Source: a virus. Taken from it: 64,000 nucleotides of DNA. The notes below the pieces were generated by a model, which saw only the letters and a program-made list of their open reading frames with translations, did no database searches and had not been told where the DNA came from. How positions within the stretch are numbered: the stretch's first letter is position 1; each line of letters opens with the position of its first letter. The stretch is from the IMG/VR virus record IMGVR_UViG_3300027418_000370. One strand, given 5' to 3'. This document shows positions 6,749 to 21,347 of the stretch, in pieces. A program made the translations under genes and the position numbers.

Positions 6749-7573
6749 ATGGCAAAACACGTTGTTGTTAGTCTTTCAGGAGGGATGGACTCCTCTACGT
6801 TACTTCTAAAAGCTCTTAAAGAGTTTGATACAGTAACAGCAATGTCTTTTGATTACGGTCAAAAGCACAGAGTAGAGCTTGAAAGAGCTCAAGAGTTGGT
6901 AAAGTACTTGAGTGATAACGGTCACTCTGTTAATTACCGAGTAATCAAACTAGACGGCTTGGTTGACCTGCTCAACTCGGCTCTAGTAACAGGTGGTGCT
7001 GAAGTACCTGAAGGTCATTACGCAGAAGAGAATATGAAAGCTACTGTTGTACCGAACCGAAACAAAATCTTCAGTTCAATTTCTCAAGCTGTAGCACTTT
7101 CTATTGCAAATGAAACTCAGGAAGAAACTTCCATTGCGTTGGGCATTCATGCTGGTGATCATGCGATCTATCCGGACTGCCGACAGGAATTTCGGGATGC
7201 AGATGACGCTGCTTTCCGCACTGGTAACTGGGACGCTGAGCGCGTATCTTATTGGACTCCTTATCTTGAAGGCGATAAGTTTACTATTCTAGAAGACGGA
7301 CTGGTATTATGTGAGAAGCTAGGAATAGACTTTGATGAAGTTTATAAGCGTACTAACACCTCTTATAAGCCAATCAAGTACTATCACCGTCCAGAGACTA
7401 ATGCCTGGACTTGGTACTCAGACTACAAATCAGCTTCTTCAGTAGAGCGTATTGAAGCTTTTATTAAGCTAGGACGACCTGATCCTGTAGCGTACGCTGA
7501 TGAGACCGGCCCAGTGAGCTGGGAGGTAGCACGTGAGCATGTTGAAAAAGTTTTAGCAGCACACGCAAATTAA
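6749..7573 (+). CDS. queC: 7-cyano-7-deazaguanine synthase
   Basis: SGGMDS, FDYGQKH, VPNRN, HAGDHAIYPDCR. Confidence 0.96.
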   Translation: MAKHVVVSLSGGMDSSTLLLKALKEFDTVTAMSFDYGQKHRVELERAQELVKYLSDNGHSVNYRVIKLDGLVDLLNSALVTGGAEVPEGHYAEENMKATVVPNRNKIFSSISQAVALSIANETQEETSIALGIHAGDHAIYPDCRQEFRDADDAAFRTGNWDAERVSYWTPYLEGDKFTILEDGLVLCEKLGIDFDEVYKRTNTSYKPIKYYHRPETNAWTWYSDYKSASSVERIEAFIKLGRPDPVAYADETGPVSWEVAREHVEKVLAAHAN

Positions 7574-7576
7574 TTA

Positions 7577-7616
7577 GGGGGGAGCTTGTCTCCCTCCCTA
7601 TTTATTCTTATATTAA
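7577..7616 (+). terminator. Hairpin overlapping a promoter
   Basis: GGGGGGAG...CTCCCTCCC hairpin with embedded TTG-N20-TATATTAA. Confidence 0.5.
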
Positions 7617-7646
7617 GAGTGTCGGAGCACCACTATAAAAACACCG
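7617..7646 (+). promoter_or_regulatory. preQ1-I-like riboswitch aptamer (copy 2)
   Basis: AGTG-TCGGAGCAC-CACT-ATAAAAA-CACC; heads the unit containing queD/queE. Confidence 0.6.
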
Positions 7647-7647
7647 G

Positions 7648-8241
7648 ATGAAAAAGTTACTACTATTATTACCTCTGCTCTGGGCTTGTGAAACGATTGA
7701 GCCCTATGTTCCTGAACCTTGTCAGGAATGTACTACTATTCATAGAGTAGATACTATTCAACATCCTGGAACTTATTATCAAGACGGATACTGGCATTTA
7801 CAATATTCAGGTATAAATTACTTCCAGGTTATCGGTCAGTTAGATTCCCTACATCCTCAATATGTTATAAATGGAGTACCGCTACTTCAAGTAGTATATG
7901 ATAGCGATACCTGGTATGTATTTGATACCATTGCTATGCAAATACCTCTGTACTCTCCATTTACTTCCCAATATACTTCCCCAAGCTTTAATTACCCTAT
8001 CTCAACAGGAGATACTACAATCTATATTACAAATCCTAACTACATTATAAATGCAGTAGGTTATACGTTTGGAAGTACAAACTTTGTGAATGCTATGCAC
8101 ACATACCAGCCCCGGTGTGAAGTACTGGTGTTTGAAGAGATGGTGGGAGATACGATTAATGTCTTCACAAGAACGCGTTATAACTACGATCTAGGTACTC
8201 AGATAATAGTAAACGATACAATTAAAGTTATAGTAGAATGA
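7648..8241 (+). CDS. Lipoprotein
   Basis: MKKLLLLLPLLWAC lipobox. Confidence 0.75.
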   Translation: MKKLLLLLPLLWACETIEPYVPEPCQECTTIHRVDTIQHPGTYYQDGYWHLQYSGINYFQVIGQLDSLHPQYVINGVPLLQVVYDSDTWYVFDTIAMQIPLYSPFTSQYTSPSFNYPISTGDTTIYITNPNYIINAVGYTFGSTNFVNAMHTYQPRCEVLVFEEMVGDTINVFTRTRYNYDLGTQIIVNDTIKVIVE

Positions 8242-8444
8242 AAAAACAGTTATTAGTAGAGCCTGTTCTTCCGAAAAGTAAGAACATTGAAAAGATGCCT
8301 GATCAGAAATGGCATCAAATTATCTCATTTATTAAATCCGGAGTCCGTATTCTTGGTTACGCACTGCTTATTGTTGATATCCCAACAGCAATGGTGGTAC
8401 TGGTCTTGAGTGAGGCAGTCGGCATAATCGAAGAATTAGTATGA
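8238..8444 (+). CDS. Small membrane protein
   Basis: C-terminal hydrophobic hairpin ending GIIEELV. Confidence 0.65.
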   Translation: MKKQLLVEPVLPKSKNIEKMPDQKWHQIISFIKSGVRILGYALLIVDIPTAMVVLVLSEAVGIIEELV

Positions 8445-8701
8445 AGTATTTGTATTTCTCAGCACCTTGGTGCGGTCCTTGTAGAATGTTAGGTCCAACA
8501 ATGGAAAAAGTAGCAGCAGAAGGAATTGCTGTAGAAAAAATTAACATCGATACGGAAGAGCTCCTAACGATGGAATACACAGTCCGCAGTGTACCTACTG
8601 TAGTACTGATTGATGATTCTGGAAAAGAATTTGCTCGTACAGTTGGCGCTAAGCCATTAAGTCACTATATTGAACAATATAATAATTTTACAAATGTATA
8701 A
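8441..8701 (+). CDS. trxA: Thioredoxin
   Basis: WCGPC; VRSVPT cis-Pro motif. Confidence 0.9.
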   Translation: MKYLYFSAPWCGPCRMLGPTMEKVAAEGIAVEKINIDTEELLTMEYTVRSVPTVVLIDDSGKEFARTVGAKPLSHYIEQYNNFTNV

Positions 8702-9152
8702 GTCAAGAAAGAAGTTTGATGGCTTTAGTACTTGCTTCCGTCAATGGAAAGCGAATACTACACACTGTCAGTACCTACACGGCTATGATGTAGAGTTTGA
8801 AGTAACGTTTGAAGGAGATCTCGATCACCGTAACTGGGTATGGGACTTCGGAGGTATGAAGCGAGCTAAGAACCTGATCGACGGTATGCAACCTAAAGAA
8901 TGGATGGAGCATATGTTCGATCATACTGTAGTTGTAGCAGAAGACGATCCTGAACTAGATAACTTCAGAGATATGGCCGACAGAGGCGTTATTCAGTTAC
9001 GAGTAGTAGAGGCAGTAGGTGCAGAGAAATTTGCTGAATTTCTTTACCACAAGCTAAATGACTTCGTACAGACAGAGACAGACGGCCGAGTTAAGGTCAT
9101 TAAAGTTAAATTTATGGAGAACCACAAAAACTCAGCAATCTATGGCGCTTAA
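8694..9152 (+). CDS. queD: 6-carboxytetrahydropterin synthase
   Basis: C-x-x-LHGY, WVWDFG, FDH, AEKFA; que context. Confidence 0.9.
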   Translation: MYKSRKKFDGFSTCFRQWKANTTHCQYLHGYDVEFEVTFEGDLDHRNWVWDFGGMKRAKNLIDGMQPKEWMEHMFDHTVVVAEDDPELDNFRDMADRGVIQLRVVEAVGAEKFAEFLYHKLNDFVQTETDGRVKVIKVKFMENHKNSAIYGA

Positions 9153-9918
9153 GAGAATTGAAGATTATAATAAGGTACTGCCGATTGTAGAGCTTTACCG
9201 ATGTGTACAATCAGAGGGTAGTCGTTTTGGACGTCCTACTATCGCTGTACGTACTACAGGATGTACTCACCGCTGCTACTTCGGTGAAGGAGGTTGGTGT
9301 GATAGCTGGTATACCTCTATCCATCCAGAGAAAGGTGGTTATTCATTTAACGATATTATTAAGATTTACGATGAGAATCCTCACGTAAAGGAGATGATGC
9401 TAACAGGAGGTAGCCCAACAATGCACCCAGCCTTAGTAAATGAGATTACTCACTTTGCTAAAGAAAGAGGTATTATTGTTACTATTGAGACTGAAGGTTC
9501 TCACTTCCTTGAGACGGACTATCCTCTTGATCTTATCTCTCTATCTCCTAAGTTCTCTAATAGCGTACCCGTAGTAGGAGCTGTTACACCTCAAGGCGCT
9601 ATTGCAGATGAGAAGATGATTAAGCAACATAACAAGTTCCGTATCAACAAAGATGCTATCCGTCAGACTTTGGACTATCATACTGATTACCACTTTAAGC
9701 CGGTATGGGACGGTAGCGCAGCGAATCTAGTAGAGATTGAAGCATTTAGGGTTGAGATGAATATTCCTAAAGACAAGACTTTTGTTATGCCTGCAGGTGA
9801 TACTCGTGAGACTTTAATTGAAATGTACCCAATCGTATTTGAGATGTGTGCCGAGCACGGTTACAATATGACCGGACGTGATCACATCATTGCCTACGAT
9901 ACTAAGAGAGAAGTATAA
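9142..9918 (+). CDS. queE: 7-carboxy-7-deazaguanine synthase (radical SAM)
   Basis: QSEG..GRP..VRTTGCTHRC...WCDS, LTGG, IETEG, SLSPK. Confidence 0.93.
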   Translation: MALKRIEDYNKVLPIVELYRCVQSEGSRFGRPTIAVRTTGCTHRCYFGEGGWCDSWYTSIHPEKGGYSFNDIIKIYDENPHVKEMMLTGGSPTMHPALVNEITHFAKERGIIVTIETEGSHFLETDYPLDLISLSPKFSNSVPVVGAVTPQGAIADEKMIKQHNKFRINKDAIRQTLDYHTDYHFKPVWDGSAANLVEIEAFRVEMNIPKDKTFVMPAGDTRETLIEMYPIVFEMCAEHGYNMTGRDHIIAYDTKREV

Positions 9919-10100
9919 TGCCAAACGGATACTTAGGAGCTTTATGGTTGATGTGGAGTAATAGCGCTATCGAACCAGCACACGTTATTAAAGCCCTAAG
10001 TATCTACGGCTATAAATTAGATGCATTAACCAAACAGGGCTTAGTAGCCTCAAATGAAAATACACGTTTTGAATATAAAGAGTATACTTCTTGGAGCTAG
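9918..10100 (+). CDS. Hypothetical protein
   Basis: Coupled ORF. Confidence 0.5.
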   Translation: MPNGYLGALWLMWSNSAIEPAHVIKALSIYGYKLDALTKQGLVASNENTRFEYKEYTSWS

Positions 10101-10416
10101 TCTGTTCTTTCTAGGACAAGTAATAACCTTCTACCAGCTTAACGGACAGTTTATCTGGAGCTGGTTTAAAAAGTACGAATGGGCTGTTGCTCTATTTGGT
10201 ATACCTATTTCGTTCATTTTTATCTGGGCTACCAGAACAGCAGTCGCTGGCTTTGACGGTTTACTATGGCCTGCTCGTTTTATAGGATTCGGTACAGGAA
10301 TGATAGTTTATGCCTTCTGCGTATGGTACTATATGGGAGAGCCGATATCCACTAAGACTGCTATTAGTCTCCTTCTAGCTCTAGTATTAATCTGTGTTCA
10401 AGTACTCTGGAAATGA
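10054..10416 (+). CDS. 4-TM small membrane protein (DMT/SMR-like)
   Basis: Four hydrophobic helices; GEP motif before the last helix. Confidence 0.6.
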   Translation: MKIHVLNIKSILLGASLFFLGQVITFYQLNGQFIWSWFKKYEWAVALFGIPISFIFIWATRTAVAGFDGLLWPARFIGFGTGMIVYAFCVWYYMGEPISTKTAISLLLALVLICVQVLWK

Positions 10417-10664
10417 GTTATATTATAGGTTCTAAGTGTATAGATGTTAAAGACAGTGGATGTATGGATGTATGTCCTGTTGACTGTATATACGAGGACC
10501 TACAGCAAATGTTCATTAACCCAGATGAATGTATTGATTGCGGAGCTTGCATTCCAGCTTGCCCAGTAGAAGCTATTTGGGACAGTGAAGAATGGGCTAT
10601 TAGGATGGGTGATCAAGCATCTGTACATGCTAACTATAAGCATTTCGGATTAGAATATAAATGA
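10413..10664 (+). CDS. Dicluster (7Fe-type) ferredoxin
   Basis: C...CMDVCPVDCI and CIDCGACIPACP. Confidence 0.92.
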   Translation: MSYIIGSKCIDVKDSGCMDVCPVDCIYEDLQQMFINPDECIDCGACIPACPVEAIWDSEEWAIRMGDQASVHANYKHFGLEYK

Positions 10665-10846
10665 GAAGAAAAGATATAATAACATTAAATGATGACTGGT
10701 ATGAAGTTCAGAGAGTACTTAGAGAGGATCGTCAATGGGATGTTGAAATTCTTAAACAGTACTGGTCTTGTACACATACCTTCCGTAAAGACGGTCTACT
10801 CTATTTTTGTAGAGAGATCCCAAAAATTGAATATCAACAAATATGA
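10661..10846 (+). CDS. Hypothetical protein
   Basis: Coupled ORF. Confidence 0.6.
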   Translation: MRRKDIITLNDDWYEVQRVLREDRQWDVEILKQYWSCTHTFRKDGLLYFCREIPKIEYQQI

Positions 10847-11490
10847 AAGTAACCCTAAATCATGTAACTCCGGACGCGGAGAATGCAATTGTAAAAATTG
10901 CTAGAGTATCCTCTAAACGTACCGACAAGGTAGAGAAGCCTGAAAGGCTACTACACTACCTTATCAAGCATAAGCATTGGTCTCCATTCGAGCACGGATA
11001 TATGTCTGTAGAGATTGAGACTTCTAAAGCTATTGGTATTCAGTTAATTCGTCACCGCTCTTTTACCTACCAAGAGTTCTCACAACGTTACCAGGATGTA
11101 AGCTTAATTGACGGTATGTTTGAGAGTGTAGAGCTAAGAAAACAAGCTGAAGATAATAGACAAAGCTCCACTGAAGTATTTAACCCAGACGTATTCTATG
11201 CCGGATACAGTACTGCAGCTTCAGCTCAGATCGGTAAACACTTTAGAGCTTCCCAAGATCTTTATAAGCGACTCCTTGATGAAGGTGTAGCAAGAGAAGT
11301 AGCTCGAATGGTATTGCCACTATCTACTAAAACTAAGATTCACATGACCGGTTCTATTCGTTCATGGATCCACTTCTTAGATCTCAGAGATGATGCTCAT
11401 GCTCAGAAAGAGATTCAAGATGTAGCAAAAGAGATCAAGAAGATCTTTATCGAACAATTCCCAGTAATCTCAAAATCACTAAACTATTAA
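10843..11490 (+). CDS. thyX: Flavin-dependent thymidylate synthase
   Basis: HWSPFEH, RHRSFTYQEFSQRY, AREVAR, HAQKEI. Confidence 0.96.
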   Translation: MKVTLNHVTPDAENAIVKIARVSSKRTDKVEKPERLLHYLIKHKHWSPFEHGYMSVEIETSKAIGIQLIRHRSFTYQEFSQRYQDVSLIDGMFESVELRKQAEDNRQSSTEVFNPDVFYAGYSTAASAQIGKHFRASQDLYKRLLDEGVAREVARMVLPLSTKTKIHMTGSIRSWIHFLDLRDDAHAQKEIQDVAKEIKKIFIEQFPVISKSLNY

Positions 11491-11492
11491 TT

Positions 11493-12116
11493 ATGAAAAA
11501 ATGGCAGCACTTTACTTTCTTGTTATGGGTGGCATTCTCGGTTTACTCCTTTACAGCCTCTGGTCAGAAATCTTTAAGAGACAGCGTTGAATGGAACACT
11601 CCTTACTTTAGAATCTGGTATTCAGAACCTCTAGAGAATCCTTTATCAGTACGTTACGGTGTAGCTTGTCCTACAGGTACTGCTTCTAGATCAGGAATGG
11701 ACTTCCACAAAGAAAAAGGAATTCATACTTCCGATAACGATGACTATGTAGCCAACGAATGGGACAAAGGTCATATGGCTCCTGCCGCAGACTTTAACTG
11801 TACCCGTGAAATGCTATTGGAGACATTTACATACGTTAACTCTTCCTTGCAGCACCAATCTCTCAATAGAGGTGTATGGAAGAAGCTAGAGACTCGAGAA
11901 AGAGAATTAGCATTAGGACACGAAGTACAAGTCTTTATCCGAGTAGAATTCTCAACTAATCCTGAAAGAGTACCTGGCGGTGCTGCTATCCCTTCCGGAT
12001 ACTATAAGGAACTAAAAGTTGCAAATCGCCGAGAATGTTACTATTTTAAGAACGAGAAACCTGTAACATCAGAGCTCTCAGATTATAAATGTCCTTGCAG
12101 AAATGCAATTAATTAG
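11493..12116 (+). CDS. Secreted DNA/RNA non-specific (His-Me) endonuclease
   Basis: Signal peptide; DKGHMAP, TF-Y-N..Q...LNRGVW..LE. Confidence 0.88.
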   Translation: MKKWQHFTFLLWVAFSVYSFTASGQKSLRDSVEWNTPYFRIWYSEPLENPLSVRYGVACPTGTASRSGMDFHKEKGIHTSDNDDYVANEWDKGHMAPAADFNCTREMLLETFTYVNSSLQHQSLNRGVWKKLETRERELALGHEVQVFIRVEFSTNPERVPGGAAIPSGYYKELKVANRRECYYFKNEKPVTSELSDYKCPCRNAIN

Positions 12117-12495
12117 TACGCATCCTATTAAGAAATCTGACCTCGGCTTTCATGCTAACCTCTTTGGAGGTAAGCTGTTAGCCTGGTTGGATGCTGCTGG
12201 AGCAGCTATGGCAATGGAGGTAGCTGATACTCCTAGAATGGTTACTATCAAGATAGACGAATGTCTTTTTAAGAAACCAGCCAAAGAAGGTCAGTTGTTA
12301 AAAATTTATGGAAAGGTAGCAGAAGTTGGAAATACGTCTTTAACTCTCTATCTTGAAGCTAGAGCACATAACGTATACTCAGGAAGTCAGTCGGTAATAC
12401 TCTCCACTAAGATTAAGTTTGTACGTATTGATGAAAATAATGAACCAATTCCAATCTCAGATAGAATTAGATTAAAGTATGCAACAGTTAATTGA
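12103..12495 (+). CDS. Hotdog-fold acyl-CoA thioesterase (YciA-like)
   Basis: DL..HANLFGGKLLAWLD, VT, F.KP, VGNTS, FVRID. Confidence 0.85.
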   Translation: MQLISTHPIKKSDLGFHANLFGGKLLAWLDAAGAAMAMEVADTPRMVTIKIDECLFKKPAKEGQLLKIYGKVAEVGNTSLTLYLEARAHNVYSGSQSVILSTKIKFVRIDENNEPIPISDRIRLKYATVN

Positions 12496-12985
12496 CGCAA
12501 AGGATATTGATATCCAAACTAAGATCATCGCTAAGAAGATCTCAGCAGAGCACAATGGAGATAAAACTCCAATCGTTATGGTAGGGTTATTGAATGGAGC
12601 ATTTATGTTCTATGCAGACCTAGTACGCAACATTACAGTAGACGTAGAATGTGATTTTATGAGAATAAGATCATACGTCAGTAAAAAGAAACAAGGTGAT
12701 ATTCAGATCACCAAAGACTTAGAGACGCCTGTTAAAGGAAAGCACGTCTATATCGTAGACGACATTTACGATTCGGGTAATACAATGGATGCTGTGATTG
12801 AATACCTTCAGGTCAAACACCCAGCCTCGATTAATATTGTTACTCTACTGACTAGAGAAACTTCTAGGATACCCCCAGTACCTTCCTATCATGCATTCAC
12901 TATCAAGGATGAATGGGTAGTAGGCTTTGGAATGGATAACGATAAAGGTTATGCAAGAAATTACAGAAGTGTGTTTGCACTCTGA
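12479..12985 (+). CDS. hpt: Hypoxanthine/guanine phosphoribosyltransferase
   Basis: GLLNGAFMF.ADL; PRPP motif IVDDIYDSGNT; WVVGFGMD. Confidence 0.9.
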   Translation: MQQLIDAKDIDIQTKIIAKKISAEHNGDKTPIVMVGLLNGAFMFYADLVRNITVDVECDFMRIRSYVSKKKQGDIQITKDLETPVKGKHVYIVDDIYDSGNTMDAVIEYLQVKHPASINIVTLLTRETSRIPPVPSYHAFTIKDEWVVGFGMDNDKGYARNYRSVFAL

Positions 12986-13008
12986 AATAGTTTTCGTATA
13001 TTAATAAG

Positions 13009-13038
13009 AGGTGTCGAAGCACCACCTAAAAAAACAAA
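13009..13038 (+). promoter_or_regulatory. preQ1-I (type II)-like riboswitch aptamer in the folE leader
   Basis: AGGTG-TCGAAGCAC-CACCT-AAAAAAA-CAAA; starts about 4 nt after the promoter element TATATTAA (12997-13004) and ends 4 nt before the folE ATG. Confidence 0.72.
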
Positions 13039-13042
13039 TTAT

Positions 13043-13753
13043 ATGGCAGATAAAAAACGTTATGATGTAGAACTCGCTCAAGCCGGGTTCGCTAATGGTG
13101 TCTCTTCTCAACTGGCTGAGAAGTTTAAAGTTCATTCTATGAACTCTATGCACTTAACAGATCAAGAGAAGCATACTATTATTGAGAATGCTGCAAAGGC
13201 ATTCGGAGAATTCCTAGATGCTCTAGGATGTGACTGGCGTGATGACCCTAACTCATCTGATACTCCTCGTCGAGTAGCTAAGGCTTATGTAAACGACTTA
13301 TGGGCAGGACGATTCAATCCTATGCCTGAGATCACAGCCTTCCCTGCTGATGGTTATGATGGTATTGTATTTGAGGGTAATATTCCTTTGACCTCGATGT
13401 GTTCGCATCACCACCAGACTATTCAAGGTCGAGTTCATATTGCTTACATTCCAGGTCCTGGAGGTAAGGTAATCGGTCTATCTAAGCTCAATCGTATTGT
13501 AGAGCATTTCGGACGTAGAGGTGCTATTCAAGAGCAGCTTACTGTTGCTATTCATAATGCAGTTCATACTGTTTGTGAAGGTAATGTAGGTGTAGCAGTT
13601 ATGGTAGAAGCTACTCACAATTGTGTATCATGCCGCGGTACTAAACACGCTGGTGCGTCAATGAAGACTTCTAAGCTATCAGGTAGCTTTATGTACGAAG
13701 ACTCAGCACGAGCAGAATTTTATGAATTTGTTAAAGGTTACGCATGCAAATGA
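13043..13753 (+). CDS. folE: GTP cyclohydrolase I
   Basis: DTPRRVAK, SMCSHH, GLSKLNR, QEQLT, HNCVSCRG. Confidence 0.97.
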   Translation: MADKKRYDVELAQAGFANGVSSQLAEKFKVHSMNSMHLTDQEKHTIIENAAKAFGEFLDALGCDWRDDPNSSDTPRRVAKAYVNDLWAGRFNPMPEITAFPADGYDGIVFEGNIPLTSMCSHHHQTIQGRVHIAYIPGPGGKVIGLSKLNRIVEHFGRRGAIQEQLTVAIHNAVHTVCEGNVGVAVMVEATHNCVSCRGTKHAGASMKTSKLSGSFMYEDSARAEFYEFVKGYACK

Positions 13754-14256
13754 AACGAGCAAAAAGTGTCCCATTTATCGACGAAGTAGAGATCTTCAAC
13801 GATACGTTCGGTAAGCCGAACAATTACACTCCTATTATTCCTAATGATAAGAAACTTACTAACTTCGTAGTAGATTTTATTAAAGAAGAGACTGACGAAC
13901 TAGCACACGCTATTGAAGAGAAAGATATTGTAGAAGTACTAGATGCTATCTGCGATCTACTTTACGTAGCTATTGGAAATGCTACCATGGTGTTTGGATT
14001 GAAGAATAAGATCGTACCAGCTTACCGAGAGGTACAGGCATCGAATATGTCTAAGAGCTGTGCGACTGTAGAAGAAGCAGAAGAGACTATTGCTCTCCGT
14101 TCTCAACAGCACGGCGAGTGTTACTTCCGTAAGGTGGGAAACCGTTATGTTGTTTATCGCAAAGCGGACGATAAGGTTATGAAATCTATTAACTACTTCG
14201 CTCCTAATCTTGAGCAGTTCTTTACTCCAGAAGAAATCGAAAACGCTAAGCAATGA
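13744..14256 (+). CDS. MazG/PRA-PH-like NTP pyrophosphatase
   Basis: EETDEL...EVLDAICDLLYV...VQASNMSK. Confidence 0.85.
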   Translation: MQMKRAKSVPFIDEVEIFNDTFGKPNNYTPIIPNDKKLTNFVVDFIKEETDELAHAIEEKDIVEVLDAICDLLYVAIGNATMVFGLKNKIVPAYREVQASNMSKSCATVEEAEETIALRSQQHGECYFRKVGNRYVVYRKADDKVMKSINYFAPNLEQFFTPEEIENAKQ

Positions 14257-14450
14257 GTCCAAAAGAACTGGTAGAACAAAATAGTATCTTCTTAGAAGAC
14301 CTACAACGCTGGGTTGTACCTTTAGAAGTAGTAGAGGAAGCCTTGCAGATCAAGAGCGCTAAAGAGCTTGAAGATAATTTAGGTAAACTTCAAGATAGTA
14401 TGTTAGAATTAAACAAGTTATTTAACGATTTAGGAAACGCCAATGGTTAA
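14253..14450 (+). CDS. Hypothetical protein
   Basis: Coupled ORF. Confidence 0.6.
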   Translation: MSPKELVEQNSIFLEDLQRWVVPLEVVEEALQIKSAKELEDNLGKLQDSMLELNKLFNDLGNANG

Positions 14451-15270
14451 GATTGCACACGAGAGTCCTATTGCTAGCTTTGACACTATTCAGCAGTATA
14501 CGGATTATGATTACGCTTTAGTACATCTCTTTGAAGAGAACGAAACTTATTTAGATAAGTTTGTAGAAGCACGAGATAAAGGACGAGAGATTATTCTCGA
14601 TAACTCTATCTTTGAATTAGGAAAAGCTTTTGATTCAGAACGCTTTGCTTTCTGGATTGATTATTTAAAGCCTACCTGGTACATCGTACCTGATGCATTA
14701 GAGAATGTAAAGCGTACTTGTGCTAATATGGCTGAGTGGAACTTTAAGTATGCAGATCATCTAGCAGCACCTAGTAAAAAGATTGGAGTACTACAGGGAA
14801 AGACTTACTCTGAGCTTATCAATTGCTATGACTACATGATTAATATAGCAAAGGTAGATATGGTGGCTATCTCTTTCGATTACAGTTATTACGAACAGCT
14901 CGTACCACACCCTAACAAGTATGTTAGCTGGATGCTAGGCAGAGTTGTGCTCTTAGGTAAGATGTTACGTGATGGAGTAATCAACCCAGATATCCCTCAC
15001 CACCTACTAGGCTGTGGACTTCCTCAAGAGTTTGCTTTCTATAAAGACTACGATTGGATCTACTCACTAGATACTTCTAACCCAGTAGTACACGGTTTGT
15101 TGGGAATCGAGTATAAAGATCAAGGGTTGTGGGATAAGGCATCAATCAAGTTATTTGAGATGATTAATATGACTCCTACCTCTGAGCAGGTTACTTCAGC
15201 AGTTTATAATGTTCAACGCTTTAGATGGTTCGCACATGGTAGCAACTCGTCCGTGGATAGCATTCTTTAG
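14443..15270 (+). CDS. dpdA: Divergent TGT-fold 7-deazaguanine transglycosylase (DpdA3-like)
   Basis: IILDNS, VPD, GVLQG, HHLLG, SLDTS motifs in TGT order; que context. Confidence 0.78.
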   Translation: MVKIAHESPIASFDTIQQYTDYDYALVHLFEENETYLDKFVEARDKGREIILDNSIFELGKAFDSERFAFWIDYLKPTWYIVPDALENVKRTCANMAEWNFKYADHLAAPSKKIGVLQGKTYSELINCYDYMINIAKVDMVAISFDYSYYEQLVPHPNKYVSWMLGRVVLLGKMLRDGVINPDIPHHLLGCGLPQEFAFYKDYDWIYSLDTSNPVVHGLLGIEYKDQGLWDKASIKLFEMINMTPTSEQVTSAVYNVQRFRWFAHGSNSSVDSIL

Positions 15271-15796
15271 TCAGACTGGATCTGAGATTGTTCAGGTTAG
15301 TAAGCAGTTAGGTCGCTGGCCTGACCTTATTATTACTAATATCAGGCCTTCTCATTTACGTACTATACATCCTGAGATTCCTACAGACCTATTAAAGTAT
15401 ACTCAGAATAGACCTGAGGAGCATGAGCTTGTATGGCTGATGAGTGCAATAAGTGATAACCCTGTTGTAACTTTACACGGATGGTTAAGAGTAATGCCTG
15501 CTTCTATCTGTAATCGCTATGAAATCTATAACGGACATCCAGGATTGATTACTAAATATCCAGACCTAAAAGGAAAAGATCCTCAATATAGAGCCTGGGA
15601 AGGTAACTATAAGACTGCTGGCTGTGTTATTCACAAAGTAACTGCCGGAGTAGATGAAGGAGAAGTTCTAGTGGAGCGAGAAAGTATACATAAGATGTTG
15701 CCTAAGAACGATATTTTTCGTATCTTACATGACACATCAGTAGAGATGTGGATAGAATTTTTACATAATAAACTATGGTTAGACGAATTGCATTAG
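15236..15796 (+). CDS. dpdN: PurN-like formyltransferase (DpdN-like, preQ1 formylation)
   Basis: FSQTGS, LHGWLRV, NGHPGL, GCVIHKVTAGVDEG; lies between dpdA and queF. Confidence 0.8.
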   Translation: MVATRPWIAFFSQTGSEIVQVSKQLGRWPDLIITNIRPSHLRTIHPEIPTDLLKYTQNRPEEHELVWLMSAISDNPVVTLHGWLRVMPASICNRYEIYNGHPGLITKYPDLKGKDPQYRAWEGNYKTAGCVIHKVTAGVDEGEVLVERESIHKMLPKNDIFRILHDTSVEMWIEFLHNKLWLDELH

Positions 15797-16293
15797 TAGG
15801 AGCTAGTAGTACTGGTAAGACTACTGTGTATGAGTTATTGAAAGCTAAACTACCTAAGTATGAGTTTATTAACGAAAGTACTCGTACGGTAGCTAAGTTT
15901 GGCTTTCCTATTAACGAAGCAGGTACTACTGAGACTCAGTTAGCTATTTCTTCTTTTCACTTAGAGGCTTTGCTTAAGCCTCATAGTTTGATTCTAGATC
16001 GTTGTTATCTAGACTTAGTTGTATACTCTAAGCATATGCCTGCTTTATCTTCTCAAGGCTTAGACTTTATTGAAGATACTTGGACTAGAGTGCAGGATGA
16101 GTATACGCACTATATTTATTTCCCTATTGAATTCGATGCTGTGGATGATGGTCAGCGCAGTGTAGATGAAGCTTGGAGAAAGATTATTGATGAAGAGTTT
16201 AAGTATCAACTCGATTTAACTGACCGTCATTATTTAACTGTTACTGGCTCACCATTGCAGCGAGTAGATCAAATTTTAAAATACATAAAGTAA
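15775..16293 (+). CDS. P-loop (d)NMP kinase-like protein (AAA_28/NadR-like)
   Basis: GASSTGKTT, E..R, LDRC..D..VY, DDGQR. Confidence 0.8.
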   Translation: MVRRIALVGASSTGKTTVYELLKAKLPKYEFINESTRTVAKFGFPINEAGTTETQLAISSFHLEALLKPHSLILDRCYLDLVVYSKHMPALSSQGLDFIEDTWTRVQDEYTHYIYFPIEFDAVDDGQRSVDEAWRKIIDEEFKYQLDLTDRHYLTVTGSPLQRVDQILKYIK

Positions 16294-17208
16294 ATGGAAG
16301 AAGTAAAGAACTACAATGCAGTCGTTGAGATTGCTGGTAAACACCTCGGTAAGGTAGGTGGAGAAGGTTACTCAGATCAGTACAATGCTGAGTTGCTAGT
16401 AGCAGTACCTCGTTATTTAAACCGAGAAGCTTACGGAATTGAGGAGAGTAATCTTCCATTCGTAGGAGTAGATGCTTGGAACGCTTATGAAGTTTCAGCT
16501 ATTACTAAAAAAGGTCAGCCTGTAGCAGGTATGTTAAAGATTGTATGCCCAGCTAATACAGAGTTTCACGTTGAGTCAAAGTCTATCAAATTATACTTGA
16601 ACTCTTTGAATATGACTCCGATGGGTCAGACAGCTAAGGAGTGTATCAAGGAGATTGAAACAACAGTAGCTAAAGACCTAACTGACCTACTAGGAGGAAA
16701 TGTAACCTGTACCTTCTTCGGCAATACATACACTCCAGAGTTTGAGTTTGATGGCTTTACAGACTTAGGTGCAACAGTAAACCTTGACAACATTGAGTTT
16801 ACAGCCTTTAAGTCTGATGCAGGTCAGCTTGAGATTGGCGGCAATCTTCCAATGTCTGTTACAACTAAAGTAAGTTCTAACTTGCTACGTAGTAACTGCC
16901 GAGTAACTAACCAGCCTGACTGGGGTGATATCTACATCCATATGCAAGGTCATAACTCAATTAAGCTTGAGTCACTAGCCAAGTATATCGTTAGTCACCG
17001 TACAGTATCTCACTTCCATGAAGAGATCTGTGAGATGGTATTTACTCACCTTCAGCAAGCCTATCAACCTGAGAAGCTTATGGTAGCATGTTTATATACA
17101 CGTCGTGGTGGATTGGATATTAATCCTATTCGAGCTACACATAAAGATATGATCCCAGGATGGTTTACTGATTCGGGTAAACGAATGAGAAAAACTTTAC
17201 GTCAATAA
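16294..17208 (+). CDS. queF: NADPH-dependent preQ0 reductase, bimodular type
   Basis: VESKSIKLYLNS, LLRSNCRVTNQPDW, FHEEICE, YTRRGGLDINP. Confidence 0.96.
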   Translation: MEEVKNYNAVVEIAGKHLGKVGGEGYSDQYNAELLVAVPRYLNREAYGIEESNLPFVGVDAWNAYEVSAITKKGQPVAGMLKIVCPANTEFHVESKSIKLYLNSLNMTPMGQTAKECIKEIETTVAKDLTDLLGGNVTCTFFGNTYTPEFEFDGFTDLGATVNLDNIEFTAFKSDAGQLEIGGNLPMSVTTKVSSNLLRSNCRVTNQPDWGDIYIHMQGHNSIKLESLAKYIVSHRTVSHFHEEICEMVFTHLQQAYQPEKLMVACLYTRRGGLDINPIRATHKDMIPGWFTDSGKRMRKTLRQ

Positions 17209-17241
17209 GTTGGAGCCTACGGGCTCCTTTCTTATCTTTAT
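17209..17241 (+). terminator. Terminator overlapping a promoter
   Basis: GGAGCC-TACG-GGCTCC-TTTC inside GTTG-N20-TATCTTTA. Confidence 0.7.
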
Positions 17242-17263
17242 AGAGTATTAAAAAGTAACGGTT

Positions 17264-17788
17264 ATGAGTAAGACTGAAGTAGTAGAGCTGATTGAGACGC
17301 TTAATAAATGTAGAGAGCTAGCATCAAAGCTTAAACTTGACCCTGATCAGCTAAGTGGCCTGTACGGTGAAGCAGTAGCCTTGTTAGTTATAAAAGAAAT
17401 TATTGGAGATAAAGAATACACACCAGCACCACCTCGTGAAAATAATATCGACGGTACAGGTAAGCTTGGAAGGTATTCTACAAAGTATCTTAGCCCTAAG
17501 ATGCACGTACCTAAATCTTCAGAACGAAATCTTGTAACTCTACATTCAGACTTAGATTTTGATTTTCTACTTATCGTCTGTGATACAGGAGAAGTATTTA
17601 ACGTACCTCGTCAGGTAATAGTTAACCAAAGCGCATTTAATCTACACGAACGCCGTGAGCGTAAAATGATTAATTGGATGACGATGGGTAGTCGCAAGAA
17701 GCGTGCAATTCGTCCGACTAATGATAACTGGAATACTCTGGTAGAAAACTACCTAGTTTGTAATCTAAATGAAATTTCTTATCTTTAA
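17264..17788 (+). CDS. Putative PD-(D/E)XK-fold endonuclease
   Basis: G..GE helix, IDG...YSTK, FDFLLIV; free-standing with own promoter. Confidence 0.45.
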   Translation: MSKTEVVELIETLNKCRELASKLKLDPDQLSGLYGEAVALLVIKEIIGDKEYTPAPPRENNIDGTGKLGRYSTKYLSPKMHVPKSSERNLVTLHSDLDFDFLLIVCDTGEVFNVPRQVIVNQSAFNLHERRERKMINWMTMGSRKKRAIRPTNDNWNTLVENYLVCNLNEISYL

Positions 17789-17791
17789 TAT

Positions 17792-20134
17792 ATGTCGATA
17801 GAAAAAAAGTATTATACGGTTACAGATAAGGAAACTGTTAACCTACTCATCCAGCACATTAACGAATCAAACGTTATTGCGTACGATACCGAGACCGACT
17901 CCCTTAACATGCGTAAGGGTAAAGTAGTCGGCTTCTCCGTCTCAGGTGATATTGGTATTGGTTTCTATATGCCAACTATGGCTTGGAATCACGCTACTGA
18001 GACTCTAGATGAACTTCAGATCGAAGGCATCGGTTGTCATACCTTAGCTAAGAAGATCTTAAGTATGCTAGTCGGTAAGAAGCTTGTGATGCACAACGCA
18101 TCGTTTGACTGCCGATTTACTAAGAACTTCTACGGTGTTAACTTACTAGATAGTCTCTGGGTTGATACTGCTCTGCTAGTACATACCGTCCAAGAAGAAG
18201 GAGCAGGTATGGGAGTATTCGGTCTTAAGCCTCTAGCTATTTCTATTCAAGAGCACATCGGTCTAGATGTAGAGAAGGCTGCTAACGAAGAGCAGATCGA
18301 ACTGAAAGAGTCTATCAAACGTAACGGAGGCTCAGTAACTAAGGAAAGCTTTGAGATCTACAAAGCAGACATGGACGTACTATCAAAGTATGCCGCTGCC
18401 GATACTGACTTAACTCTCCGAGTATGTACTTACTTTATTCAGAAACTTAAAGAAGAGAACTTAGAGCAGTTCTTCTTTGAAGAGGAAGTTATGCCTCTGT
18501 ACCGTGAAGTAACTATTCCTATGGAAGAGATGGGAGTAGATTTAGACTTAGAGCTACTAGAAGAGACTAAGAAAGAGATTATTGAAGATCTTCAGAAGAA
18601 TAAAAAGATTGTACTTGACTCTATTCTAGCTCTACCAGCCGGTAAAGAATGGGTTGTAGATACTGCTCTAAAAGAGTTCCCACCTTCTCATAAAGGAACA
18701 TGGGCACAATACTTAGCTATGCGTTACTCTTTACCTCTGCCTAAATCTGAGAAGACCGGTAAGTACTCTATTACTCAAAAGACTGTAGGAGAGCTAGAAG
18801 ATTCTCCTGCTAAAGAGTACCTCTTAACTGGAAACTTAGATGTGCTGAATGAAATGGAGGTACTTAAAATCTCTATGGCATTATGGAAAGAGAAGAATGA
18901 TGGGGAGTATATCAACATTCAATCTAAGAAACACTTAGGTGAACTTGTATTTGACTATATGGGTATTAAACCTCTTGTATCAGGAGCTAATACTAAGTCC
19001 GGTCGTGATAAGTTTGACATGGATATGATTGAAGAGCTCTCTAAAGACTACGAATGGGCTGAGAATCTTCGTATCTATAACAAGCTACTTAAGATTAAGT
19101 CTACTTATATCGATCGCTTTGTAGATAATCACGAAGACGGACGTTACTACTTCTACTTTAAACAGAACGGTACTGTATCAGGCCGTTATGGTTCAGATGC
19201 TCAGCAACTACCTAAGCCTAAAGAGGAAGGAGAAGATGCTCCTATCATCGTCAAGTATACTAATATCGTCCGTGCTTTCTTAACCTCAGGACCAGGACGT
19301 AAAATTATCGATGCTGACTACGAGTCATTGGAACCTCACTGCTTTGCTTCTGTATCAGGAGACATTAACCTTCAGGAGATCTTTAACAACGGATGGGACT
19401 TCTACTCTACTGTTGCTATCAGAACTGAGAAGCTAGATGAGCAGCGAGATAAGTACCCTGACGGAGTATCAGCTGATAAGAGAGCTCCTAACTACCTTAA
19501 GAAGTTAGACCCTGTTAAGCGTAACCAAGCTAAGGCTTACTCCCTCGGTATTGCATATGGTATGGAAGCTTACGCTCTAGGAATGACACTAGGCATCTCT
19601 CAGAAAGAAGCCGAAGTACTTGTAGATGGTTACCTAAATGGATTTCCTCAACTTAAGCAGTGGCGTATTAACTCTCGTAAGCAGGTTAAAGAGCATGGCT
19701 TTATTAAGAATAAGGTAGGCCGTATCCGTCACCTACCTAAAGTTAAAAAGATGTACGATACTTTCGGAGACCAGATCATGGACTGGAAGTTCCGGAAAGA
19801 CCTTTCAGAACGTTATGGCAAGGATCAAGTACTACAATGGTACCGTGACTACCGAAACGGACTGAATAACTGTTTGAACTACCAACTGCAGAGCCTTGCA
19901 GCGGCTGTCGTAAACCGAGCGGCAGTACAGATCAATCGCAAGCTGAAAGAGCTTGGGATCGACGGCCGTGTTCAAGCACAGGTACATGACCAGTTGATCA
20001 TTAACGTACCAGAAGACCAGGCAGAGTTTGTAGCTCCTATCGTAAAAGAGATTATGGAGAGTACTACCAAGCTTGAAGGAGTAACTCTAAAAGCACCTCC
20101 TGAGATTTCTTATAACTGGAGAGACGGCCACTAA
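17792..20134 (+). CDS. polA: Family A DNA polymerase with 3'-5' exonuclease
   Basis: ExoI DTET, ExoII HNASFD, ExoIII YAAAD; TVSGR; motif A DYESLE; motif B RNQAKAYSLGIAYG; motif C VHD. Confidence 0.96.
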   Translation: MSIEKKYYTVTDKETVNLLIQHINESNVIAYDTETDSLNMRKGKVVGFSVSGDIGIGFYMPTMAWNHATETLDELQIEGIGCHTLAKKILSMLVGKKLVMHNASFDCRFTKNFYGVNLLDSLWVDTALLVHTVQEEGAGMGVFGLKPLAISIQEHIGLDVEKAANEEQIELKESIKRNGGSVTKESFEIYKADMDVLSKYAAADTDLTLRVCTYFIQKLKEENLEQFFFEEEVMPLYREVTIPMEEMGVDLDLELLEETKKEIIEDLQKNKKIVLDSILALPAGKEWVVDTALKEFPPSHKGTWAQYLAMRYSLPLPKSEKTGKYSITQKTVGELEDSPAKEYLLTGNLDVLNEMEVLKISMALWKEKNDGEYINIQSKKHLGELVFDYMGIKPLVSGANTKSGRDKFDMDMIEELSKDYEWAENLRIYNKLLKIKSTYIDRFVDNHEDGRYYFYFKQNGTVSGRYGSDAQQLPKPKEEGEDAPIIVKYTNIVRAFLTSGPGRKIIDADYESLEPHCFASVSGDINLQEIFNNGWDFYSTVAIRTEKLDEQRDKYPDGVSADKRAPNYLKKLDPVKRNQAKAYSLGIAYGMEAYALGMTLGISQKEAEVLVDGYLNGFPQLKQWRINSRKQVKEHGFIKNKVGRIRHLPKVKKMYDTFGDQIMDWKFRKDLSERYGKDQVLQWYRDYRNGLNNCLNYQLQSLAAAVVNRAAVQINRKLKELGIDGRVQAQVHDQLIINVPEDQAEFVAPIVKEIMESTTKLEGVTLKAPPEISYNWRDGH

Positions 20135-20241: not shown

Positions 20242-20682
20242 ATGACACAAATCAACTACAAGTTGTGGGATAATAACGTATCCTCAACATTTGATATCCT
20301 TTTCAAGGATTTCTTCAATCAGAACTCTACCTTTAATTCTCCGGTAGACAACAAGATCGGACACCCGGTCGACATTTACGAAACACAACACGGACTATTT
20401 TTCGAGATTGCCTGCACAGGTCTTAGCAAATCAGATGTTGAGATTAATGTGGAAGGTGACGTACTCCGTATTGTACATAACTCAGAGGACAGGCTTAAAA
20501 AAGATCCTGAGAACCTCAGAGTGTATCACAAAGGAATTGCCAAACGTTCCTTCAATTTAGGTTATAAGATTGCTCGTAGATTTGACATGGAAGCTATCGA
20601 TGCTAAGATGCAGGATGGTCTCTTAACAATTAATATCCCTCACACTGAGGAAAATAAACCTACGAAAGTTAAAATTAAATAA
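20242..20682 (+). CDS. Small heat-shock protein Hsp20
   Basis: PVDIYE, HKGIAKRSF, AKMQDGLLTI.IP, C-terminal VKI. Confidence 0.93.
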   Translation: MTQINYKLWDNNVSSTFDILFKDFFNQNSTFNSPVDNKIGHPVDIYETQHGLFFEIACTGLSKSDVEINVEGDVLRIVHNSEDRLKKDPENLRVYHKGIAKRSFNLGYKIARRFDMEAIDAKMQDGLLTINIPHTEENKPTKVKIK

Positions 20683-20742
20683 GTTATAGAGTTGGCTCCC
20701 TGTACTCTTTTTCGTATATTAAGAGTATAATCAAAACAAGTT

Positions 20743-21024
20743 ATGGCAAGAGGAAAAAAGGCTGGGCATGTAAAGCCCCAAGTAACAATCAAAGACGATA
20801 TGTTAACACCGTACTATATTAGTATGGATGAAACTCAGTACACTTTAATGATCGAAGGTTCTACTTTACCTTTAGGTTATTATAGCAGTCTAGAAGGAGC
20901 AATCAAAAGAGCAGCTCGATACCTTACAGTTGAAAGTCTTAATCAACAGACAGTAGATCTTACAGACTTTCTGAAGGCCTATGATAATGTAATCACACAA
21001 TTAAATAATCGCATCCCAGTATGA
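20743..21024 (+). CDS. Hypothetical protein
   Basis: ORF after promoter. Confidence 0.7.
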   Translation: MARGKKAGHVKPQVTIKDDMLTPYYISMDETQYTLMIEGSTLPLGYYSSLEGAIKRAARYLTVESLNQQTVDLTDFLKAYDNVITQLNNRIPV

Positions 21025-21347
21025 AAAGATTAGTACCTATGAATGACCGCTTGGTCGTTAAACCTATAGAAGAGACTGAGCAGATGTACGGTAACATCAT
21101 CATCGCTGATATGGGTAAAGAACGTCCTGAGATGGGCGAAGTTATTGCTGTAGGACCTGGACGTATGTCCGAATACGGTAAATTTATCCCAGTTAACTTT
21201 AATGTAGGTGATATTGTATTGCTACCTAAGATTGGAACCCTCCGAGTAGAGTTTGAAGGCGAAGAGTTCTACATTGCTCAATCTCGAGAAGTTCTCTGTA
21301 AAGTACAAGAAACATATAATCCAGAATCAGATCACGAATTACTATGA
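21021..21347 (+). CDS. groES: Co-chaperonin GroES
   Basis: PMNDRLVVK, GEVIAVGPG, VGDIV. Confidence 0.95.
   Translation: MKRLVPMNDRLVVKPIEETEQMYGNIIIADMGKERPEMGEVIAVGPGRMSEYGKFIPVNFNVGDIVLLPKIGTLRVEFEGEEFYIAQSREVLCKVQETYNPESDHELL

Follow-up and report, generated by a model that had tools for sequence, protein, structure and literature searches.

At what stage is the deazaguanine of fully substituted phage genomes introduced: on nucleotides, ahead of replication, or later, in the DNA itself? This question is raised by a gene cluster of an uncultured phage, which occupies positions 6,749–20,134 of a 64-kb stretch of viral DNA (hereafter, the window). The window is the final 64 kb of a 124,656-base IMG/VR viral contig (IMGVR_UViG_3300027418_000370), which is estimated to be ~76% complete. 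The cluster encodes enzymes for the synthesis of 7-aminomethyl-7-deazaguanine (preQ1), the transglycosylase DpdA3, the formyltransferase DpdN and a P-loop protein of the nucleoside/nucleotide kinase fold, and it lies within a segment (5.5–23 kb of the window) in which every gene is found on the + strand. Comparison of DpdA3 loci revealed that a kinase gene is nearly always located beside the DpdA3 gene, and this suggests, without proving it, that the exchange of guanine takes place before the DNA is copied. We assign a probability of about 0.45 to the whole explanation, in which a module for guanine replacement works through a nucleotide-level, pre-replicative route.

Identity of the gene cluster

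From the thioesterase gene to the genes for PolA, GroES and GroEL, the window is syntenic with Flavobacterium phage immuto_2-6A, and the amino acid identity of the encoded proteins ranges from 58% to 76% (Table 1). At the DNA level, the immuto phages of Flavobacterium were the only cultured relatives found, with 74% identity along a 273-base stretch of the gene annotated as 'DNA guanine transglycosylase'. All five enzymes of the full preQ1 pathway (FolE, QueD, QueE, QueC, QueF) scored above the curated Pfam cut-offs. Every gene named in the earlier note was recovered on the + strand where that note had placed it, by means of Pfam or, in the case of DpdA3, by identity to the immuto protein and by its tRNA-guanine transglycosylase (TGT) fold. 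For QueE, the ATG at position 9142 fits the alignment better than the start of the longest open reading frame (ORF) at 9058.

The names DpdA3 and DpdN were coined by Cui, Hutinet et al. in 2023 (PMC10516641). In that study, a dG peak was not detected in the DNA of immuto_2-6A, which contained 345,000 residues of 7-formylaminomethyl-7-deazaguanine (fdPreQ1) per 10^6 nucleotides; immuto_2-6A is the only phage in whose virion DNA fdPreQ1 has been measured (PMC10516641). The synteny with this phage, taken together with the published fdPreQ1 data, places the locus in an already published system. Judging by its gene content, the region is very probably the module by which an uncultured immuto-like myovirus replaces guanine with fdPreQ1, and the complete formyl-preQ1 module that the earlier note had proposed has a gene-for-gene counterpart in a phage of known DNA chemistry. 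A reading of the cluster as a tRNA-modification pathway was not adopted, given that its homologue in immuto yields fully substituted DNA.

In both phages, the kinase and MazG-like genes flank the DpdA3 gene. The differences are found in the other genes. The window encodes a genuine 6-oxopurine phosphoribosyltransferase (HPRT), whereas immuto_2-6A has a short divergent ORF with a phosphoribosyltransferase (PRT) domain instead, and ThyX, whereas ThyA is annotated in the examined immuto stretch. In addition, a non-specific nuclease, a ferredoxin and a variable restriction-endonuclease-like ORF before PolA are present in the window. The modification was measured in the DNA of immuto_2-6A, whereas for the phage of the window it is predicted from the genes.

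DpdA3 as a minimal TGT-fold enzyme

The AlphaFold (AF2) model of DpdA3 has a pLDDT (predicted local distance difference test score) of 95.5 and matches tRNA-guanine transglycosylases in Foldseek (E-value, 3e-8). Superposition with the TGT of Z. mobilis gave a VIA-align Z of 18, with 236 aligned amino acids and a root-mean-square deviation of 3.1. An alignment of 63 DpdA3 sequences taken from a 50%-representative library contains the invariant residues D53 (in DNSxFE), D84 (PD), H187 and G190 (HLLG), and D210 (DTSxP). In the family profile, the HLLG...D motif aligns with that of bacterial DpdA (7UI4), and D210 falls on the nucleophilic aspartate of this enzyme proven by mutagenesis, while D53 and D84 were assigned as catalytic by motif order only. 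The predicted chemistry of DpdA3, a base exchange via a covalent aspartyl intermediate, is therefore well supported by the model and the conserved motifs. The protein shares the TIM-barrel TGT fold and conserved catalytic aspartates, including the nucleophile, with both bacterial DpdA and TGT.

TGT exceeds DpdA3 in length by about 100 residues. In TGT enzymes, a zinc site is held by a Cys/His cluster; no conserved Cys/His cluster was found in the 63-sequence alignment of DpdA3. Owing to the divergence of DpdA3, the Pfam TGT model gave no match anywhere in the contig. Members of the DpdA3 family are acidic, with a median isoelectric point of 5.45, and the protein encoded in the window has a net charge of -12. 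It shares 65% identity over 266 amino acids with DpdA of immuto_2-6A and 37% with gp056 of Campylobacter phage CP220, and it has a distant match to CGPG_00065 of Cellulophaga phage phiST. Homologues are abundant in metagenomes, where 4189 protein clusters (E-value ≤ 1e-3) were found, as well as no fewer than 564 IMG/VR loci.

All three DpdA3 phages that have been analyzed chemically are fully substituted, whereas phages with other DpdA types reach 30% at most (PMC10516641). Bacterial DpdA requires the ATPase DpdB and modifies less than 0.1% of guanines (PMC10164549, PMC10516641). DpdA3, unlike the bacterial enzyme, has no DpdB-like partner and is linked to 100% modification. Attempts to reconstitute the modification in Escherichia coli with DpdA3 alone failed (PMC10516641). 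A search of the literature found no study in which the substrate of DpdA3 was tested.

Genes that accompany DpdA3

Co-distribution was assessed in 94 IMG/VR loci around DpdA3 homologues and three loci of cultured phages. These formed 42 clusters at 80% DpdA3 identity, and the counts given below were made only over clusters with enough flanking sequence.

A homologue of the window kinase adjoins DpdA3 in 30 of the 34 countable clusters. The AF2 model of the kinase (pLDDT, 91.5) best matches deoxyadenosine kinase, the ribosylnicotinamide-kinase domain of NadR, YorR, deoxyguanosine kinase (dGK), deoxycytidine kinase (dCK) and thymidylate kinase (TMPK) in Foldseek. When the search was anchored on the kinase instead, DpdA3, DpdN and MazG were found in all 71 loci, which are all close relatives, and HPRT in eight of them. 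The pre-replicative idea of the earlier note is partly supported: of the nucleotide-level enzymes that it had grouped with DpdA3, the kinase mostly stays with it, also in CP220, while MazG (14/37 clusters), HPRT (3/22) and PolA (12/23) do not.

More can be learned from the distant phages than from such close relatives. In CP220, whose genome is fully substituted with 2'-deoxy-7-amido-7-deazaguanosine (dADG), gp057 is a homologue of the window kinase (32% identity; E-value, 4e-19), and the DpdA3 homologue gp056 is located among tail genes, between an HD-phosphohydrolase/AAA_33 protein and gp057. In phiST, fully substituted with 2'-deoxy-7-deazaguanosine (dDG), the AAA_18 P-loop protein CGPG_00066 is encoded directly upstream of DpdA3, and CGPG_00068 is a MazG. 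The DpdA3 gene of Chryseobacterium phage MA9V-3 has an AAA_18/AAA_33 gene directly beside it and a DCD-like gene nearby. The kinases of phiST and MA9V-3 thus belong to other P-loop families than the AAA_28 protein of the window. A DpdA3-like gene of Bacillus phage BSTP12 is preceded by a P-loop gene whose match to deoxynucleoside kinases is weak and below the threshold, and it is followed by a gene for DNA polymerase I. A T4-like locus (L074) has the order QueE, FolE, an unassigned ORF, DpdA3, DpdN, kinase, QueF and QueC. CP220 and phiST therefore resemble the window in having a DpdA3 homologue, a P-loop kinase-like gene directly beside it and a (d)NTP hydrolase (HD or MazG, respectively) nearby; unlike the window, they stop at bases derived from 7-carboxy-7-deazaguanine (CDG) and lack QueF and DpdN.

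The type of (d)NTP hydrolase varies by lineage: MazG occurs in immuto-like phages and phiST, an HD protein in CP220, and a DCD/dUTPase-like protein in MA9V-3 and in L074, which has neither MazG nor PolA. A 145-aa ORF of L074 at the position of MazG was considered and found not to be MazG-like. Searches of solved structures with the MazG-like protein of the window, both with the single sequence and with a profile, gave nothing significant, so its superfamily assignment is based on Pfam and PHROGs only.

DpdN was present in 30 of 34 clusters, QueF in 32 of 34 and FolE in 28 of 37. The nearest solved relatives of the window DpdN are PurN structures (E-value, 5e-8), and the N-x-H and D catalytic motifs are present; PurN enzymes act on a ribonucleotide. 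Natural fusions of DpdA3 with DpdN (P0216 and P0225; 447 aa) and with QueF (P0271 and P0273; 531 and 568 aa) bind the three proteins into one pathway and are compatible with either DNA or a nucleotide as the substrate. Besides the QueF fusions, the search for longer proteins with DpdA3 returned only P0272 (634 aa), in which an intein that contains a LAGLIDADG endonuclease splits DpdA3, P0122 (586 aa), with an N-terminal extension that has no family match, and P0274 (483 aa), with a sub-threshold DUF3310 match (23.6 bits; cut-off, 24).

Several further architectures were noted. In a locus without DpdN (L053, 6123–7079, + strand), the kinase carries at its C-terminus a fused domain with a weak GNAT match (E-value of 0.002, below the cut-off), and P0258 consists of DpdA3 and a 160-aa extension that is GNAT-like by eye only; these two proteins raise the possibility of an acetyl-preQ1 form of the modification. 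The extra domains of P0258 and P0274 gave no match to the kinase profile. In P0277 and P0278, kinase homologues are fused to DUF5591, which we take to be a domain of ArcS/TGT-type proteins. In P0275 and P0276, they are fused to a ~280-aa domain with HxH...H...D motifs that appears amidohydrolase-like by eye, and the non-kinase half of both has no match to the DpdA3 profile.

Proposed exchange on free nucleotides as the favored explanation

According to the favored explanation, FolE, QueD, QueE and QueC would convert GTP to 7-cyano-7-deazaguanine (preQ0), and QueF would convert preQ0 to preQ1; these functions are assigned by homology. DpdA3 would then swap guanine for the deazaguanine in free deoxyguanosine or one of its free nucleotides rather than in finished DNA, DpdN would formylate the aminomethyl group, and the adjacent kinase would take the exchange product on towards the triphosphate by phosphorylation. 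In addition, dGTP may be hydrolyzed to dGMP by the MazG-like pyrophosphatase, leaving less competing dGTP and more feed for the exchange, and the phage PolA would build G-free DNA. HPRT, where present, would only recycle the released guanine via GMP to GTP for FolE. DpdA3 would then be the first TGT-fold enzyme to carry out base exchange on free deoxyguanosine or its free nucleotides, and the fdPreQ1, dADG and dDG genomes would all be made before replication, which we consider to fall a little short of an even chance.

A related logic is known from phage T4, where hydroxymethyl-dC depends on the dCTPase gp56, on gp42 and on the kinase gp1, and from phages with 2-aminoadenine (dZ), which encode PurZ, MazZ or DatZ, and DpoZ. 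In these systems, the canonical dNTP is cut to the dNMP by a hydrolase, the monophosphate undergoes enzymatic conversion and is phosphorylated again by a phage kinase, and the product is built into DNA by a polymerase. By analogy, the proposed route via DpdA3 would follow the same logic. Unlike in these systems, no polymerase clade co-distributes with DpdA3, and the steps of the route are proposals only; moreover, we know of no precedent at the nucleotide level for a transglycosylase as the converting enzyme. That Campylobacter phages might make a modified dGTP is an idea that has been raised earlier (PMC6884629).

Two observations were counted in favor of the nucleotide route: a kinase-like neighbor of DpdA3 recurs in five or six unrelated lineages, and a (d)NTP hydrolase, though not always of one type, is found repeatedly. 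The route is further supported in part by full substitution being found only with DpdA3, by the failure of DpdA3 alone in E. coli and by the small-molecule kinase fold of its neighbor. The acidity of DpdA3 and the likeness of DpdN to PurN were also counted, and both are weak arguments.

Exchange in replicated DNA and other alternatives

The alternative that survives best is the module as published, in which DpdA3 puts preQ1 or formylated preQ1 in the place of guanine once the DNA has been replicated, and either the base or the DNA is formylated by DpdN. On this view, the kinase, MazG-like protein, HPRT, ThyX and nuclease would belong to ordinary phage nucleotide metabolism, sharing the early-gene region by chance or supplying GTP to FolE (guanine to GMP, GDP and GTP). 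We regard this as a serious contender that nevertheless remains on the doubtful side. Several points speak for it and weigh against exchange on nucleotides. DpdA3 belongs to the TGT/DpdA superfamily, the characterized members of which all act on polynucleotides, i.e., tRNA or DNA, and the authors who defined DpdA3 interpret the exchange as post-replicative (PMC10516641). No assay or sequence feature considered here reveals the sugar-bearing substrate of DpdA3. The family of the kinase, which has a nucleoside/nucleoside monophosphate (NMP) kinase fold, is not exclusive to DpdA3 phages: it has members in 83 records of Streptomyces phages without DpdA3, and in one of these phages, Samisti12, no DpdA3 or que genes lie near the kinase gene. 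The kinase of Samisti12 (L180; NC_042012.1, 68733–69302) is ~31% identical to that of the window, and a MazG-like gene lies 4.5 kb upstream. In one DpdA3 subclade (L015/L016, L085/89/91/94 and L096), with the order DpdA3-DpdN-QueF-QueC, no kinase gene is found between DpdN and QueF. MazG is not a universal part and is missing from most clusters, and MazG, HPRT and PolA track the phage lineage rather than DpdA3. Fusion of DpdA3 with the kinase was found neither among longer DpdA3 proteins nor among longer kinase proteins, and the fusions that do exist, with DpdN and QueF, suit both models. Finally, the cluster counts are not independent events, because most of the sampled loci are relatives at ≥49% DpdA3 identity, and independent lineages number only five or six.

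On the other hand, chance or shared descent is a poor explanation for non-homologous P-loop kinase-like genes that touch DpdA3 in unrelated contexts, such as the tail genes of CP220, phiST and MA9V-3. It would also be unprecedented for a small acidic enzyme without a DNA-opening partner to replace every G in double-stranded DNA, and the fold of the neighboring protein is that of a small-molecule kinase rather than of DpdB/ParB. Prediction of a complex of DpdA3 with the kinase gave a score of 0.00, which carries no weight either way, as the prediction was run without controls, and a gene for nucleoside diphosphate kinase (NDK) was not found in the contig, which is ~76% complete.

It is improbable that the P-loop protein acts as a DpdB-like ATPase cofactor that powers the exchange by DpdA3 in DNA, rather than as a metabolite kinase. 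Bacterial DpdA does need ATP hydrolysis by DpdB (PMC10164549), and a P-loop gene adjoins DpdA3 in most lineages. However, DpdB is described as ParB-like, whereas the structures nearest to the model of the window protein are deoxynucleoside and NMP kinases and the kinase domain of NadR, and at 172 aa the protein is small; it is also acidic, and AAA_28 is its sole Pfam domain. Its small-molecule kinase fold therefore argues against a DNA-directed role of this kind.

Least probable, by a small margin, is a route in which HPRT loads preQ1 or formylated preQ1 onto phosphoribosyl pyrophosphate (PRPP), kinases and the phage ribonucleotide reductase lead to the deoxy-triphosphate, and PolA is dedicated to it like DpoZ in dZ phages: the cluster does contain a genuine 6-oxopurine PRT and ends with PolA, and the large subunit of ribonucleotide reductase is encoded at the start of the window, but HPRT is sporadic, immuto_2-6A reaches full replacement without a detectable homologue of it, the adjacency of PolA is confined to the immuto-like lineage, and the universally conserved DpdA3 would be left without a role.

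HPRT, PolA and accessory genes

HPRT matches solved bacterial HPRTs over nearly its full length (E-value, 6.6e-31). No homologue was detected in immuto_2-6A, where only the short divergent PRT-domain ORF was found; together with the counts of 3/22 clusters and 8/71 kinase-anchored loci, this does not bear out HPRT as a step of the pathway. Since it is a genuine 6-oxopurine PRT but occurs sporadically, HPRT is best read as a guanine salvage enzyme and is probably an accessory gene. The 12 of 23 clusters with PolA near DpdA3 all belong to the immuto-like lineage, and no PolA is found nearby in L074 or CP220. PolA is thus the replicative polymerase of the immuto-like lineage rather than the dedicated partner that had been proposed. 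HPRT and PolA follow the phage lineage and are not core parts of the module.

The stretch also contains genes that the earlier note did not list, namely those for the thioredoxin, ferredoxin, ThyX, non-specific endonuclease, 4HBT thioesterase and the restriction-endonuclease-like ORF (Table 1). The non-specific endonuclease, found near DpdA3 in eight of 22 clusters, probably degrades host nucleic acid, and it may provide precursors from host DNA while the modified phage DNA is spared. The ferredoxin gene is located ~0.5 kb downstream of the gene for the radical-SAM enzyme QueE, and its product is possibly the electron donor of QueE. The 197-aa ORF at 7648–8241 is 85–90% conserved in the nearest relatives (L006 and L019). 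For the ORF at 17264–17788, no Pfam or PHROG match was found, nor any tblastn match in the fetched relatives, the closest included. Its Atlas neighbors are Bsp6I/PvuII/DpnI-like PD-(D/E)xK clusters (score, 0.94; TM, 0.62), and it is probably not part of the modification pathway. As a lead only, a G-free genome would not be harmed by a G-recognizing nuclease that lacks a methylase partner.

Table 1. Genes of the guanine-replacement region and its surroundings in the window.
Product	Position	Strand	Identity to immuto_2-6A	Basis or remark
Ribonucleotide reductase large subunit, spanning the window start	1-1290 (G000:C1:60578-61945)			
QueC, 7-cyano-7-deazaguanine synthase (CDG to preQ0)	6749-7573	+		Pfam PF06508, E 2.6e-38
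197-aa ORF between QueC and thioredoxin	7648-8241	+		No family, PHROG or Atlas assignment
Thioredoxin-like protein within the que cluster	8441-8701	+		Pfam PF00085, E 4e-15
QueD, 6-carboxytetrahydropterin synthase	8670-9152	+	59%	Pfam PTPS, E 6e-16
QueE, radical-SAM CDG synthase	9142-9918 (longest ORF from 9058)	+	67% over 257 aa	Pfam Radical_SAM
4Fe-4S ferredoxin	10413-10664	+		Pfam Fer4, E 1e-10
ThyX, flavin-dependent thymidylate synthase	10843-11490	+		Pfam Thy1, E 4.6e-49
Non-specific DNA/RNA endonuclease	11493-12116	+		Pfam Endonuclease_NS, E 6e-24
4HBT (hotdog) thioesterase	12103-12495	+	72% (immuto26A_50)	Pfam 4HBT, E 3.7e-14
HPRT, 6-oxopurine phosphoribosyltransferase	12479-12985	+		Pfam Pribosyltran, E 2e-23
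FolE, GTP cyclohydrolase I (first step from GTP)	13043-13753	+	76%	Pfam, E 1.6e-43
MazG/PRA-PH-type all-alpha NTP pyrophosphohydrolase	13744-14256	+	58% (immuto26A_63)	Pfam PRA-PH, 46 bits (cut-off 21); phrog_671, E 2.6e-29
Small 65-aa ORF between MazG and DpdA3	14253-14450	+		Homologues at equal position in close relatives; 66-aa ORF there in immuto
DpdA3, minimal TGT-fold 7-deazaguanine transglycosylase, 275 aa	14443-15270	+	65% ('DNA guanine transglycosylase')	No Pfam match
DpdN, PurN-like formyltransferase	15236-15796 (longest ORF from 15209)	+	59%	Pfam Formyl_trans_N
P-loop nucleoside/nucleotide-kinase-fold protein, 172 aa	15775-16293	+	67%	Pfam AAA_28, E 6e-15
QueF, preQ0 reductase (preQ0 to preQ1)	16294-17208	+	62%	Pfam QueF_N, E 3e-31; QueF, E 3.8e-19
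Variable 174-aa ORF with restriction-endonuclease-like (PD-(D/E)xK) features	17264-17788	+		Atlas leads
PolA, family A DNA polymerase with 3'-5' exonuclease	17792-20134	+	74%	Pfam DNA_pol_A, E 7.6e-57; exonuclease, E 4.6e-11
Hsp20, GroES and GroEL after polA	20242-22966	+		GroES/GroEL likewise follow polA in immuto

Significance for DpdA3 phages

With this locus, one more uncultured phage joins a published system. Of greater use is the pattern brought out by the comparison, in which DpdA3, the only DpdA type with 100% replacement, keeps a kinase neighbor across unrelated phages. This pattern turns the origin of the modified base into a specific testable question, namely whether the deazaguanine is placed on nucleotides ahead of replication or into DNA that has already been copied. 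If the nucleotide route is true, the published mechanism would have to be revised, the TGT superfamily would gain a new type of reaction, and enzymatic access to 7-deaza-dGTP analogues would be opened.

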